From Candidatus Eiseniibacteriota bacterium (lineage in GTDB: Bacteria > Eisenbacteria > RBG-16-71-46), in NCBI GenBank assembly GCA_041483195.1, contig JBGPFC010000001.1:164383-228382 (forward strand): DNA of 64,000 nucleotides, given 5' to 3'. Position 1 is the stretch's first letter; each line of letters opens with the position of its first letter. Shown here in pieces: positions 36,001-51,000 of this stretch. Made by a program: the position numbers.

Positions 36001-39000
36001 CTTCGTACACGTGAGCTCGCCCACCCGGCCCGATTCGATCAGCTCCAGGAAGGCGCTCGCGCCCTCGGCGCCCACGATCGTGGAGACGGCCGGGCCCCAT
36101 GGCAGATCGGGCCACTCGATGCCGGTCGTGATATCGGCGCTCGCGCGCAGCACGTCGAGCGATCGCTCGAAATTCTCGCGCACCGCGGGCTGCACCTTCT
36201 CGACGACGCCCTTGGGCACCGCGAGCCGCGGGCGCTTCACGCTCGCGGGGCGCTCGGCGTACTCGAACTTCTGGCGAACGCTGCTCTCGTCCCGCGGGTC
36301 GCGGCCCGAGATCGCGGCGAGCACCAGCGCGCAATCGTCGGCGCTCCTCCCCATCGGCCCGAGCTTGTCGAGCGTCCAGCACAGCGCCATCGCGCCGTAT
36401 CGGCTCACCTGGCCGTAGGTGGGCCGCAGGCCCGTGACCCCGCAGAACGCGGAGGGCGTGAGGATCGAGCCGGAAGTTTCGGATCCGATCGCGAACGGCA
36501 CCAGTCCGGCGGCGACCGCGGCGCCGGGCCCGCTCGATGAGCCGCCGCTCCAGAACGCGGTATTCCAGGGCGTGAGCCCCGGGCCGGTGAACGAGGCGTC
36601 CGCGTGGTTGTAACCCATGCCCCCGGCCAGCTCCACCATCGCGAGCTTCGCGCACAGCACCGCGCCCTTCTCGCGGAGCCGCTCGATCACGGTGGCGTCG
36701 TAGTCGAACACCTGGTCCTTGTACGGCGCCGCGCCCCACGTGGTGGGCACGCCGCGCGTCGCGATCAGGTCCTTCACGCCGTACGGGATGCCGTGGAGCA
36801 GGCCGCGCGAGTGCCCGCCCGCGATCTCGCGCTCTGCGCCGCGCGCTTCGAATAGCGCGGAGTCGCGCATCACGCGCGCCACCGCGTTGTAGCGCGGTCC
36901 GATGCGCTCGAGGCGATCGAGGCAGCCCTCGGTCAACGCGACCGGCGAGAGCTTGCGCTGACGAATGCGGGTCGCGAGTTCGCGCAGGGGCAGGAAGAAG
37001 ACGGAGTCGTCGAGCATGTCGGCCTCAGGCCTTGAACGTGGAGTCGGGTTCGTCGGCGTTCGCGAGCTTCTGGTCGCGCATGCGCCGTCCGCCGCGGATC
37101 CCGCCGTCGAGGTCGCGCGTCACCGCCTCGAGCTGGTCGGGGGTGAGATGCTTGCCGTAGCGCCGCTGGATGATCGCGGCGAGCGAGCGGGCGTCCTCGG
37201 AGATCTCGGGGGGCTTCGCGGCGGCGGCCTTCGCGCTGTCTGCGGGCGCGGCCCCGGCGGGCGGCGCCGGCGTGCTCGAAGGCGGGGCGCCGCCCGACGC
37301 GGGCTTCGATTGCGCGAGCGCGAGCGCCGGAAGGCCGAGCGAGGAGATGCCCGCGATCCCGGCGAGCTTCAGGAAGCGGCGGCGATCGAAATCGTGCGGC
37401 TCGAACGAGCTGGACATGCGAACCTCCGGCCGAAGGTGCGATGTGGTTTCACGGCGTGCGCAGATTACGCCGTCGCGGCGCGCGCGGCAACGCCGGCGAG
37501 GCCGCCGCGCGTGATCAGGTGCTCGCCGCGTCCTTGCGGCGCGTGTAGATCATCTCGAACTGGAGCTGGATCAGCACCCGGCAGTCCTCGCAGTCGCCGC
37601 GGATCTGATCCGGCCGCACCGGATCGGCGGCGACTTCGAAGCCCAGCGCTTCGTAGAGCCGCTTCATTTCCTCGGCGCGCGCCCCGCTCGCGATGAATCG
37701 CCGCTCCCACCCCGCCGCGACGCGCGCGGGGTCCGCCTCGATCTGCGCGTCGCTCAGCGCGCGCTGCGCCTCGCCCGCCACGATGAACCGAAGCGGACCG
37801 ACGTTGCGCTCGGGTGCGGGCGGGACCTGCGCGCCGTCGCCGTCAGCCATCGGACCGCGGCCCCTTCATGGGGCGTCCGGCCGCGCGGATCGCGCGGCGG
37901 CCCGGCCGACCCGCGAGAGATCGGCGCCGTCGGCCTCGAGCTTTCGCATGCGGAGATGGCCCAGGAACGCCGCGCCGAAGGCCGGGACGAACTGCACCAG
38001 GTCCCCCGCCGGCACGTTGACCTCGGCGTGGAGCTCGCGTCTCACCACGTCGACCATCGTCGAGAAGCGCAGGATCCCGCCGATCAGGGTGAACTCCGGC
38101 TCCATGTTCACGCGCTTCAGGAGCTGCACCGAGCGGCCCACCAGCGAGACGATCGCGCCGTGCATGATGTCGGCCGGGGCCGCGCCCTGCGAGAGATGGT
38201 TGATGACCTCGGATTCCGCGAACACCGCGCACACCCCGGAGATGGACATCGGCTCCTTGGAGGTCGCGACCAGCGGTCCGATCTCGGCGGTCGTGAACCC
38301 CATGTAGCGCGCGGTCTTCTCCAGGAACGCCCCGGTTCCGGCCGCGCACTTGTCGTTGAGCCGGAACGATTTCACCCGCGCGCCGTCGGTCAGCCCGCTG
38401 GCCTTCATGGTCTGCCCGCCGACGTCCAGGATGGTGCGCGTTCCCGGGAACAGCGCGGTGGCGCCGCGCGCGGCCGCTGTGAGATCGGTGACGTTCATGT
38501 CGACGAACCGCGCCTGGTGACGCCCGATGCCGGTCGCCACCACGTAACTCATGTCGTCGGCGGTCAGGCCCGCAGCTGCGATCGCCTCCCGGTGCGCCCG
38601 CTCCGCCACCTCCGGCAGCTGGAAACCGGTCGGCATCATGGTGCGGCCCACGATCTCGTGAAGCTCGTTCAGGACGACGGCCTTGGTGTAGGTCGAACCG
38701 ATGTCGATGCCGGCCGTGTATCTCATGCCTCACCGTGCCTGGCATGCACCGGAACCCGGCCCGCGAGGATGTGATCCAGCGCGAACAGCGCGGCTCCGAG
38801 CGCGCCCATGTAGTGGGACTCCTCGCTCACGTTGACCTTCAGTCCGAGCTTCGCGTTCAGGGTCTCGATCATCGCGACGTTGCGCGCCACGCCTCCGGTG
38901 AAGGTCACCTGCTCCTCGACCCCGACCCGGCGCAGCAGACCCGCCGAGCGCATCGCGATCGACTGGTGCACGCCCAGCAGGATGTCCTGAATCTTCTTCC

Positions 39001-48000: not shown

Positions 48001-51000
48001 TGGGAAGTAGTGGTAGAGGGCGGTCTTTCGCACCCCGAGGTGGTCGGCGATGTGCTCGAGCGTCGTCCGGTGATAGCCCTTCTCCCCGAACGCGCGCAGC
48101 GCTGCCTGGAGGATTTCGGCGCGACGGCGGCGGCGCTTCTCCTGGACGCGCGGCGAACGCGTCTCGGATCGCGACACGCGAGCGACGGCCGACTGCCCCT
48201 GCGTCACGGTTGGCCCTCCCCCATCCGGTATCGGCAAAGATTGAACAACCGTTAGAAATTTGAACCAACGGTAGAATTATGTCAAGCTCGAATCCAGGCG
48301 GTCGAGGATGGGCACAGGGGCTCGCGTGAGGGGACGCGGAGGAGGGCATCATGAGGGATCCGATCGAGCGGCTGCTCGAAGAGCACATGCAGATCATGGC
48401 GCAGATCGACGGCCTGCGAGGCGCGGTGCGCGCGCTCGAGAGCCGCGGCGAGGCGGCCGTGCCCGAGACGCGACCGGCGCTGGCCGGTGCGGGCCGCATG
48501 ATGGCGACCCAGCTGCTCGCCCACGCCCGGAGGGAGGACGAGGCCCTCTTCCCGGCGCTCGAGCGGGTCTTCGGGAGCGGCTCCGGTCCGACCGCGGTGA
48601 TGCGCCTGGAGCACCGCGCGATTCACGCGCAGGCCGAGCTCTACCGCGAGACGCTGCGCGAGCTGGAACAGGTCGAGCATCCCGCGATCGTGGCGGGGGG
48701 CGCCGAGCTGCTGGCGCTCGCGGCCGAAGGCGGGGGCGCCGCGAGGCTCCGCGACGCGGCGCGGCACATCATCGAGCTGCTCGAGCTTCACTTCGCCAAG
48801 GAGGAGGAGATCCTGTTCCCGATGGCGCGCGAGATGCTCTCCCCCGCGGATCTCGCGGCGGTCGCCCTCAAGATGGAGGCGCTGGAGCGGGGCTGAGGCC
48901 GGGGGAGTCCCCTCAGTCGTTCAGCACGCGCCGGATCTCGGCGCGCACGCGCTCGCCGATCTCGGGAGGCAGCTGCTGCCGGCCCCAGGCGCGGCACTCC
49001 CCCAGCACGCGCCGCAGGGACTCGCACGCTTCCCCGCAATCGGCGCATGAGGCGACGTGCGTCCGCAGGCTCTCGCACGCGGCCGGGCTCAGCTCGCCTT
49101 CCAGGAAGCGGCTGATCGAGCGCGTCGTGTCAGGGCAGCGTCCGTGAGTGGCAACGATCGGCGGCCTCCGCGGCGGCGCGCGCCGGGATCGCGGCGTGAA
49201 GTGCGGCGCCAGCGTGTCGCGCAGAAGGAGACGGGCGCGGTGCAGCCGCGACTTGAGCGCCCGCTCTCCGATCCCGAGGACGCGCCCCGCCTCGCGCGCG
49301 CTCAGGCCCTCCACATCACGCAGCACCAGCGCCTCGCGCAGCCCCGACGGAAGGGCGCCGATCGCGCGCTCCAGGGCCGCTCGCAGCTCGCGACGCTCAT
49401 GCCGCACCACCGGGTCGTGGTCGCCTCCGCTCGCGAGCGCGAGCTCGCGACTGTCGGTCGCGTGCTCGAGGGACTCGATGTGCCGCGGGGCGTGCGCGCG
49501 GCGGCGCCGCTGGCGCATGCACGCCCGCCGCGCGATGGCGTAGGCCCACGTGCTCAGCGATGCATCGCCGCGAAATTGCCGGAGCGCCCGGACCAGCGAG
49601 ACCAGGACGTCCTGCACGACGTCTTCCGCGTCATGTGCGTCCCGGCAGAATCCCCGGCTGAAGCGATAGATCGGCTTCGAAACCAGGCCGAGCAGTCGCG
49701 AGAGTGCCCGTCGATCGCCGTCCCGGGCCGCGTCCAGGAGCCGGCGCTCCGCCGCGTCGGGGCGCGAGCGGGAAGCCCTCGAGCCCGTCTGAGCGGAGCG
49801 CTGAAACTCCTTGAACGCCAGCATGTTCGGCTGCATATGAATCCTTTTTTGCGGGCGCGGCTCTCACCCGCGAATGGAACTCCACCGCACGATCCCATCC
49901 GGGAATCCCCACCGGCCCGCCATCATAGCAAAGCTGGGGCTCGCATCCGTCCTCGCGCTCGCCTCGCTGGCGGGTTGCGCGTTGAAGGGCGGGGGCTCCG
50001 GCGCGCAGCGCGAGGCCGCAGACACCCTGGCCGTCCAGCTGGTGCGCGCCGAGACCCGGCAGCGGGTTGCGCTGGTGCTTCCGGCGCGAGTCGCGGCCCG
50101 CGAGGAGGTCACCGTCACGGCGCGCGTGGCCGGCCGTCTCACGGCCCTGCCCGCTCGCGAAGGCGATTCGTTCGCGGCCGGGCAGGCGCTCGCGATGTTC
50201 GAGGCGCCCGAGATGCGCGAGGCGCTGGCCTCGGCGCGCGCCGGGCTCGATGCCGCGACCGTCCGGCGCGACAACGCGCGCCGCCAGGAGGCGCGCATGG
50301 ACTCGCTGTTCGCGGCGCGCGTCGTGGCGTTGCGCGATCTCGATCAGGCGCGCGGCGAACGGCGCGACGCGGACGCGGCGGACGCGGCGGCGGGCGCGGC
50401 GCTCGACCAGATCGACGCCGGCGTGCGGATCGCGGCGCCGTTCGCGGGAGTGGTCGTGCGTCGCCGGGTCGATCCGGGCACCAGTGTCCTTCCCGGACAG
50501 CCGTTGCTCGAGATCCGATCCAACGCCGTTGGCGAGATTCTCGCCTCGGTTCCGGAATCGGCGCTCGAATCGCTCCGCGCCGATCGCGCGAGCTTTCAGA
50601 TCGGAGACGGGCCATGGCACGCCGCGCGGCTCACGCGGGTGGATGGCATGACCGACTTTGCCACCCGCACGCGGATCGCACGCTTCGCCCCCGCACCGAG
50701 CGCCGTCGCGCTCGAGCCCGGGGCGTTCGCGCGCATCCGGCTGATCGCCGCCCCGTCCGCGGCGGCCGCGGCCGGCGATGCCACGGCGCGCCCCGCGGAC
50801 GACTCCGTTCCGAGCGTTCCCACGCGCGCGCTCGTGCGGCGCGGCGCACTGGCGGGCGTGTACGTGGTGCGGGAAGGCCGCGCGCGCCTGCGCTGGATCA
50901 AGCCGGGGCGCGCCGATGATGCGAGCGTCGCGGTGCTGGGCGGACTCGATCCGGGCGAGGCGGTGGTAGCCGATCCGACCGGGCTGTGGGACGGCCGCCC

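Follow-up and report, generated by a model that had tools for sequence, protein, structure and literature searches.

A probably self-regulated operon with a class I reductase of the MBR subclass, predicted to dearomatise aryl-CoA anaerobically in Eisenbacteria

Within the 64-kb stretch of Eisenbacteria DNA that was analysed (the window), a set of minus-strand genes with touching or short junctions very probably constitutes a self-regulated operon that dearomatises benzoyl-CoA or a closely related aryl-CoA without oxygen and opens its ring. The operon is built round a class I reductase that, judged from its amino acid sequences, belongs to MBR, the third known subclass of class I benzoyl-CoA reductases. 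This enzyme type is already described; what is new is how widely it occurs in uncultured lineages, together with a small partner gene of no known family.

Gene content and control of the operon

An earlier note on this DNA had described a complete central benzoyl-CoA-type pathway in one operon, and all of the genes were found on the minus strand in the order given there. The unit is wider than had been proposed, extending from a conserved ORF at 37515-37850 to the promoter and operator region at 48241-48285. It is headed by a TetR-family repressor (TetR_C_24 in Pfam; 47572..48207), followed by Had (46449..47504) and the ring-opening 6-oxocyclohex-1-ene-1-carbonyl-CoA hydrolase, Oah (45302..46405), both of which exceeded their equivalog cut-offs as reported before (TIGR03201, 464 vs 339; TIGR03200, 557 vs 464). 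The next gene (44490..45233), previously labeled a hydroxyacyl-CoA dehydrogenase, matched short-chain dehydrogenase (SDR) families and is FabG-like; its position suggests that it may act as a 3-hydroxypimelyl-CoA dehydrogenase. Downstream are an archaeal/SCP2-type thiolase (43316..44470; NF004720, 482 against a cut-off of 420; PDB 7YVY and 6ESQ), its zinc-ribbon/OB-fold partner (42803..43312; PF12172 and PF01796) and a Dch-like dienoyl-CoA hydratase (42048..42806), for which the best model was TIGR03189 with a score of 206, below the cut-off of 292. The four reductase subunits follow: gamma (40882..42051), the active-site subunit beta (39563..40867), and the activases alpha (38723..39541; 272 aa) and delta (37866..38726; 286 aa).

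Among 80 related loci, the N-O-Q-P order of the reductase genes was conserved (N in 77, Q in 75 and P in 71), Dch was present in 53, the SDR in 47 and the thiolase, at 60% or more, in 17. Oah was detected in 25 of the 28 genomes bearing the MBR-type reductase. A neighboring amidase and a 130-aa ORF were left out of the unit because neither occurs in any of the 80 loci.

A sigma-70-like promoter was read from the sequence of the minus strand at 48257..48285 (TTGACA, 17 nt, CAAATT); a consensus promoter scanner did not list this site, and TTGAC recurs at this position in many related loci. The promoter is overlapped by two tandem 16-bp palindromic operator sites (48260-48275 and 48241-48256, assigned to neither strand) that lie 19 bp apart and have the consensus TTGAAC-N4-GTTCAA. 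A site with three or fewer mismatches occurred in 42 of 45 loci, as opposed to a mean of 2.3 and a maximum of 6 in shuffled sequences, and the spacing of 19 was kept in 24 of the 32 loci having two sites. The promoter pair was the only strong one in a scan of the genome; no peripheral genes were therefore assigned to the regulon. The operator closely resembles the 16-bp consensus reported for Thermus TTHB023/PfmR (PMC7022988) and differs from the MbdR site, ATAC-N10-GTAT (PMC4424350). Likewise, the best PDB match of the regulator was 3VPR (108 bits), with only 45 bits to MbdR (4UDS). The TetR protein would repress its own promoter through the two operators, and an aryl-CoA would probably release it.

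The mbd cluster of Azoarcus (Aromatoleum) sp. CIB similarly places an MBR-type reductase and upper-pathway enzymes under a TetR repressor (PMC4424350). It differs in carrying a CoA ligase and an ABC transporter, neither of which is present in or beside the operon described here, and its repressor does not share the position at the head of the operon.

Subclass and predicted chemistry of the reductase

The enzyme has the class I make-up of two dehydratase-like and two ASKHA activase subunits. For all four, the best PDB match was MbdONPQ, the structurally solved 3-methylbenzoyl-CoA reductase of the MBR subclass (9G87, 9GAI, 9GAL and 9GBA; 53–70% identity). Hand counts on the alignments gave approximately 61% identity between gamma and MbdN (9G87_B; 544 bits vs 72 to BzdN), 70% between alpha and MbdQ (9GAI_D; 407 bits) and 56% between delta and MbdP (9GAI_C; 308 bits). 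Beta scored 515 bits to 9G87_A vs 92 to BzdO, and showed 53% identity to P0286, which stands in for MbdO, and 35–36% to Thauera-type proteins. All the Thauera-type models (BcrA/B/C/D, 216/578, 218/487, 260/421 and 123/313) and Bzd-type models (BzdN/O/Q, 73/454, 101/449 and 187/380) remained under their cut-offs, reproducing the earlier beta scores on BcrB and BzdO, and MbdO itself reached only 222 on the BcrB model. The BcrA-like activase is the 272-aa alpha gene and not, as had been stated, the 286-aa gene.

The tree placement that the earlier note had listed as missing gave the same answer. In trees of the beta subunit only, with MbdO represented by P0286, beta and MbdO fell in one clade (42 of 60 rows, support 100/100) apart from the Thauera-type and Bzd sequences, and a 127-row tree recovered the same clade with an SH-aLRT of 100. 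Hence, the view that the reductase lies outside the Thauera and Azoarcus types stands on both scores and trees, as the enzyme belongs to the third of the known class I types, MBR (PMC11971306); the novelty that this view implied does not. The two short activases are indeed present and are not unusual, as MbdQ (269 aa) and MbdP (273 aa) are likewise short.

The residues named for the cluster and catalysis (PMC11971306) were located in beta, where Cys93, Cys126, Cys371 and Glu64 align with the BzdO-, BcrB- and MbdO-type rows; the three cysteines for an open-site [4Fe-4S] cluster and the catalytic Glu are thus retained. Beta has Met46 and Tyr129 where MbdO has Ala and Phe, the Tyr occupying the place of BzdO His131 beside the cluster, and it lacks a 9-residue insertion of MbdO. 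Both activases contain Cys127, Cys166, DxGST and DxGGQ, all invariant across the aligned relatives, and the Cys motifs of gamma match those of MbdN. The Thauera aromatica BcrABCD system, the nearest other subclass in the tree, shares the overall pathway (Dch, Had and Oah) and differs in its long BcrA, which is absent from this operon. The Bzd type (BzdNOPQ; PDB 8S02) also possesses short activases, the three-cysteine cluster and the catalytic Glu, but is far off in the tree, with only 92 (beta) and 72 (gamma) bits, and its cut-offs are missed widely. The gamma subunit of the Bzd type has six Cys that hold a double-cubane cluster.

By analogy with characterized relatives, from which the chemistry is taken, the enzyme would use ATP to reduce an aryl-CoA to its 1,5-dienoyl-CoA. 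MBR enzymes form a permanent heterotetramer (PMC11971306). The alpha/delta dimer would bind ATP and hold a bridging [4Fe-4S] cluster; upon ATP hydrolysis, single electrons from reduced ferredoxin would reach the gamma cluster and from there the [4Fe-4S] cluster of beta, which is bound by three cysteines and water and would reduce the ring. Dch would then hydrate the dienoyl-CoA, Had oxidize the product and Oah open the ring to a 3-hydroxypimelyl-CoA, which the SDR and the thiolase pair most likely cut to glutaryl-CoA and acetyl-CoA. A single glutaryl-CoA dehydrogenase model came up among the matches, and none of the acyl-CoA dehydrogenases passed it. There is no ferredoxin gene in the operon; the genome has a ferredoxin at C25, and two KorAB-like 2-oxoacid oxidoreductase pairs and Rnf at C3 and C35, which may supply the electrons.

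Tiedt et al. are said to have reported in 2018 that MBR reduces methyl- and halo-benzoyl-CoAs. The operon might be specialized for a ring-substituted aryl-CoA (benzoyl-CoA with a 3-methyl, halo, amino or hydroxy group), like the mbd pathway, instead of being a general benzoyl-CoA route, a reading we consider possible but somewhat unlikely. The one characterized enzyme of the clade is a 3-methylbenzoyl-CoA reductase, and in two loci (L079 and L085) a Bzd-type reductase that passes its cut-offs directly precedes one of the present type, with part of the same arrangement in L088, which suggests different substrate ranges. Moreover, Oah (about 36%; 209 < 464) and Had (252 < 339) are divergent in 17 of the 80 loci, and the Dch of the operon is itself below its cut-off. 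However, the Oah and Had encoded here pass the cut-offs for the standard enzymes, this is the sole class I reductase found in the genome (G000), no mbd-type ligase or transporter flanks it, and the operator is not that of MbdR. MbdO is also a derived tip on a long branch nested inside the clade, so its preference need not be ancestral.

That nesting also makes a new, fourth subclass very improbable, for MbdO is not sister to the other sequences and intermediates exist at 54–60%; in addition, MbdO behaves alike on the family models and the subunit sizes match, although the 53% identity in beta is moderate and the operon has a further 111-aa gene, a gene order different from that of MbdONPQ and another regulator. 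A further reading, in which the four subunits form a 2-hydroxyacyl-CoA dehydratase system of amino-acid fermentation and lie beside beta-oxidation genes by chance, has the shared superfamily (PF06050 and PF01869), the naming of close relatives in some sources and peptide-fermentation genes in the genome in its favor, and is close to refuted by the HadB model (133 vs 750), by the 111 bits of beta to solved HadB vs 515 to MbdO, by the two different activase genes and by Oah and Had, which travel with the reductase and have no role in such a pathway.

A small partner gene and the possible source of the aryl-CoA

Directly behind the last reductase subunit, the minus-strand ORF at 37515..37850 encodes a 111-aa protein with an invariant C87-x-x-C90. 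It has 91 relatives and was found in 27 of the 28 genomes with this reductase and in none of the 74 others, as well as in 58 of 80 GTDB loci. No Pfam or NCBIfam family was assigned (two weak single-member hits among 73), Atlas matches were hypothetical clusters only, Foldseek gave no match at E 0.001 and the best VIA-align Z was 4.3. Its conservation with the reductase makes it a candidate accessory factor of the enzyme.

As noted earlier, the operon contains no benzoate-CoA ligase, and none was over the cut-off in the genome (best 269 < 375, an acetate-CoA ligase). At E 1e-95, 24 of the 28 reductase-bearing genomes yielded none, and a link between ligase and reductase was rejected (4/28 with the reductase vs 20/74 without). 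Searches of the genome did not find phenylacetate-CoA ligase, or a PadB-like molybdoenzyme among three PF00384 matches, and the 2-oxoacid oxidoreductases were far under the phenylglyoxylate dehydrogenase cut-offs. An HcrCAB-like cluster at C13 (812/995, 284/405 and 197/258) was rejected as evidence of a feeder because its alpha subunit is also common without the reductase (82 of 102 genomes; 56 of 74 lacking this reductase). The genome does encode IorAB followed by an ADP-forming acyl-CoA synthetase, and aromatic amino acids may, at rather less than even likelihood, be the main source of the aryl-CoA, by way of IorAB and the synthetase acting reversibly instead of a benzoate ligase. Two ADP-forming acyl-CoA synthetases (C3 and C5) and a family III CoA transferase (C34) are present in the genome. 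Six of 91 related loci have IorA no more than 10 kb from the operon; all six are from Gemmatimonadota and are therefore not independent.

The clade II nosZ at C19 is present as had been recorded (877 vs a cut-off of 625); its link with the reductase is one of co-presence, as nosZ is no commoner with the reductase (15/28) than without it (34/74). Searches of the genome for NrfA, NirK and aerobic PaaA were negative.

Distribution and significance

Of the 102 genomes of the order, 28 have the present reductase type (72–89%), and all of these belong to the family (28 of 89, including G000), in agreement with the earlier figure of about a third of the family. Some class I reductase beta subunit was found in 37 of the 102, supporting the proposal that Eisenbacteria are candidate anaerobic aromatic degraders; true Thauera-type genes occur in six other genomes of the order. 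MBR-type reductases are found in at least eight phyla, and a plasmid search returned only distant relatives (at most 28%). JGI annotation already names many clade members, which the curated BcrB and BzdO cut-offs miss, and some sources name close relatives '2-hydroxyacyl-CoA dehydratase'.

Taken jointly, these data could be read, doubtfully, to mean that uncultured phyla of soil and sediment have MBR as their main class I ring reductase and that the subclass is no methylbenzoate specialism confined to a few Betaproteobacteria; that it works there with a fifth, CxxC accessory protein; and that its aryl-CoA arises from the aromatic amino acids of peptides and needs no benzoate-CoA ligase, with electrons passing to N2O or traces of oxygen in cells that, like this one, have no nitrate reductase. 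The compact operon and a small partner strictly tied to the reductase type provide testable handles, and the inducer of the repressor/operator pair would reveal the substrate. If the enzyme is active, the lone characterized MBR enzyme would be a peripheral tip in a large clade of environmental sequences, and Eisenbacteria would join the anaerobic degraders of aromatic compounds.

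Operon content and reductase type

Between 48207 and 37866, the minus strand holds the genes for TetR, Had, Oah, a FabG-like short-chain dehydrogenase (SDR), a thiolase, its OB-fold partner, Dch and the four reductase subunits, with short or overlapping junctions, which agrees with the gene content and order claimed in an earlier note. The family scores in that note were reproduced: 464 for Had (cut-off 339), 557 for Oah (cut-off 464), and 218 against 487 (BcrB) and 101 against 449 for the reductase β subunit. The top model of Dch was its own family, yet its score of 206 was below the cut-off of 292. 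A 286-aa activase had been taken as the BcrA-like subunit; the α-like one is in fact the 272-aa gene. An amidase and, ahead of it, a 130-aa ORF that has a twin-arginine-like leader (35611–37417, minus strand) neighbor the operon; the pair was not found next to it in the best 80 related loci. At 31818–33872 (minus strand), an aconitase-family protein fuses small and large isopropylmalate-dehydratase-like parts in a single chain.

Three types of class I reductase, BCR, MBR and BZD, are described in the accessible part of PMC11971306. The top structure match of all four subunits was the 3-methylbenzoyl-CoA reductase MbdONPQ (9G87, 9GAI). Against solved structures, β scored 515 bits to MbdO vs. 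92 to BzdO, γ 544 bits to MbdN vs. 72 to BzdN, α 407 bits to MbdQ (269 aa) and δ 308 bits to MbdP (273 aa); identities counted by hand from printed alignments were ~61% for γ to MbdN, ~70% for α to MbdQ and ~56% for δ to MbdP. Using as MbdO stand-in the stored protein P0286, which contains six of six motifs from the 9G87 chain, β showed 53% identity, and 35–36% to two Thauera-type proteins. Since P0286 itself scored 222 on the BcrB model, the low scores in the window are those expected of any MBR enzyme. In a 60-row tree (rows picked from 127; β subunit only; LG+G4; long outgroup branches), β and MbdO shared one 42-row clade (100/100), outside which the Thauera-type and Bzd-type rows fell; MbdO was nested within the window-β clade on a long branch, and a second tree agreed. 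The cluster cysteines (93, 126 and 371 in β; 127 and 166 in both activases), Glu64 of β and the ATP motifs are kept, whereas His131 of BzdO is replaced by Tyr in the window β and Phe in MbdO. Judged by its sequence, the reductase is a member of the known MBR subclass.

It is very probable that the operon would serve to reduce benzoyl-CoA, or an aryl-CoA close to it, at the expense of ATP and with electrons from ferredoxin, open the ring via Dch, Had and Oah, and shorten the product by the SDR and thiolase, under TetR control lifted by substrate. Within this reading, a specialist for substituted aryl-CoA is conceivable though rather doubtful; pointing to it are a Bzd-type reductase in tandem with the MBR-type one in two loci, and divergent Oah and Had in 17 of the best 80 among at least 570 relatives. 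These 17 clusters (L036, L037, L038, L042, L044 and 12 more, from soil Gemmatimonadales and one Anaerolineae) carry this reductase with a divergent Oah (~36%) and a divergent Had placed after it, and may serve a different substrate. At L079:1453–6081, L085:1537–8638 and, in part, L088, a single operon holds a Bzd-type reductase, ferredoxin and flavoprotein directly ahead of the MBR-type enzyme. A fourth subclass of class I reductase is unlikely, as is a dehydratase system formed by the four subunits. The observation in the earlier note is thus borne out and its interpretation supported only in part: tree and scores do place the reductase outside the Thauera and Azoarcus types, but its placement in one clade with MbdO speaks against an unplaced new type.

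Distribution of the reductase

A β-like match was present in 37 of the 102 genomes of the order, comprising 28 of this type (72–100%), six of the Thauera type and three of a further short-activase type. A third reductase type within the same taxonomic family, on its own tree branch, was seen at L116, L117 and L118 (genomes G101, G080 and G084); it has two short activases, a β that reaches 426 on the BcrB model (cut-off 487), and divergent Oah and Had.

Scanning of species genomes matched at least 599 stretches, of which at least 570 were confirmed relatives; locus comparisons rest on the best 80 (68–89%), drawn from Eisenbacteria, Gemmatimonadota, Acidobacteriota, Chloroflexota, Elusimicrobiota, Planctomycetota, Actinomycetota and Myxococcota. 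The MBR-type reductase is therefore not confined to Eisenbacteria. Neighbors of β in these loci, many of which stop at contig ends, were N (77/80), Q (75/80) and P (71/80), with dch (53/80), had (47/80), SDR (47/80) and thiolase (17/80) genes nearby. Around one MbdO-like gene (L136:9074–10417), the 10 kb to each side contained no match to N, Q or P.

Benzoyl-CoA pathway genes are known from Gemmatimonadota, Acidobacteriota, Chloroflexota and Myxococcota genomes (accessible parts of PMC10581226 and PMC11704145), and at least one was noted in an Eisenbacteria genome in the portion seen of a preprint (10.1101/2025.11.25.690425). The accessible literature (including parts of PMC11323493, PMC11484514, PMC7428800 and PMC12016498) held no report that places the whole pathway in Eisenbacteria or this clade in the MBR type; some of this may already be shown in subscription papers, e.g., Tiedt 2018.

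Operator sites and a small CxxC protein

Upstream of tetR, a TTGACA promoter overlaps with a pair of palindromic sites spaced by 19 bp, a feature missed in the earlier note. Among 45 loci (TetR ≥55%, one duplicate removed), 42 had a site with three or fewer mismatches from TTGAAC-N4-GTTCAA, a consensus derived from the same sequences on which it was scored; shuffles gave a mean of 2.3 and a maximum of 6. The top PDB match of the window TetR was 3VPR, which we take to be PfmR. The consensus is in line with the published 16-bp site of Thermus TTHB023/PfmR (PMC7022988, in part), and the window operator is unlike the MbdR site in the accessible part of PMC4424350. Divergent from tetR is a hemerythrin-domain gene (48351–48896, plus strand), possibly for oxygen sensing or cluster repair; its relatives adjoin the operon in L062, L131 and L132, and the third reductase type in L116 and L118.

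An ORF of 111 aa (37515–37850, minus strand), missed in the earlier note, lies 16 bases behind the δ gene. Its 91 relatives share an invariant CxxC plus other fixed residues, and family and fold searches gave no known family and no clear fold. The gene occurred in 27 of the 28 genomes that carry this reductase (the contig of the remaining one stops inside β), in none of nine with other reductase types and in none of 65 without a reductase. Within the best 80 of at least 570 wider loci, 58 had it; from our reading of the locus maps, 12 of the other 22 were cut short and 10 had ample room, so the protein is not essential. Co-occurrence among non-independent kin makes an accessory role our best guess, whether in cluster assembly, cluster repair or electron input.

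Genome context and substrate entry

The genome, 97% complete, encodes Rnf, a ferredoxin, two KorAB-like pairs, oxidases of the cbb3 and bd types, and numerous multiheme cytochromes. Its IorAB genes are followed by one for an ADP-forming acyl-CoA synthetase. An ORF with 42 CxxCH motifs (C11:2367–6179) and, close to the nos genes (C19:11000–29000), a series of cytochromes with 5 to 19 hemes may serve in extracellular electron transfer. The reported nosZ is present (clade II, 877 against a cut-off of 625); a link to this reductase was rejected because nosZ is not enriched.

A genome search found no benzoate-CoA ligase, phenylacetate-CoA ligase, NrfA, NirK or PaaA, and neither best hit nor context marked any of the three molybdopterin-family matches as nitrate reductase or PadB. 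Only 4 genomes of the 28 that carry this reductase type had a ligase-family gene. An HcrC-A-B-like molybdoenzyme cluster at C13:87800–91800 (L144:7805–11777), whose flavin subunit has a four-cysteine insertion, was discarded as a link to the operon because it is near universal in the order; with its α in 82 of 102 genomes, it is a core enzyme there. The order-wide HcrCAB and ligase tallies take in G010, a genome flagged as unpublished that lacks a reductase, which leaves the conclusions unaffected. Downstream of the HcrC-A-B-like cluster, at a distance of 3 kb, is a gene for a kynureninase-like protein. Three distinct genomes (L078/L132, L090 and L093) carry a tryptophanase/tyrosine phenol-lyase family gene close to the operon; here such a gene lies away from it, at C50:7369–8772.

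The significance of the finding rests on the missing entry route, on a 111-aa partner protein of no known family and on the breadth of the clade.
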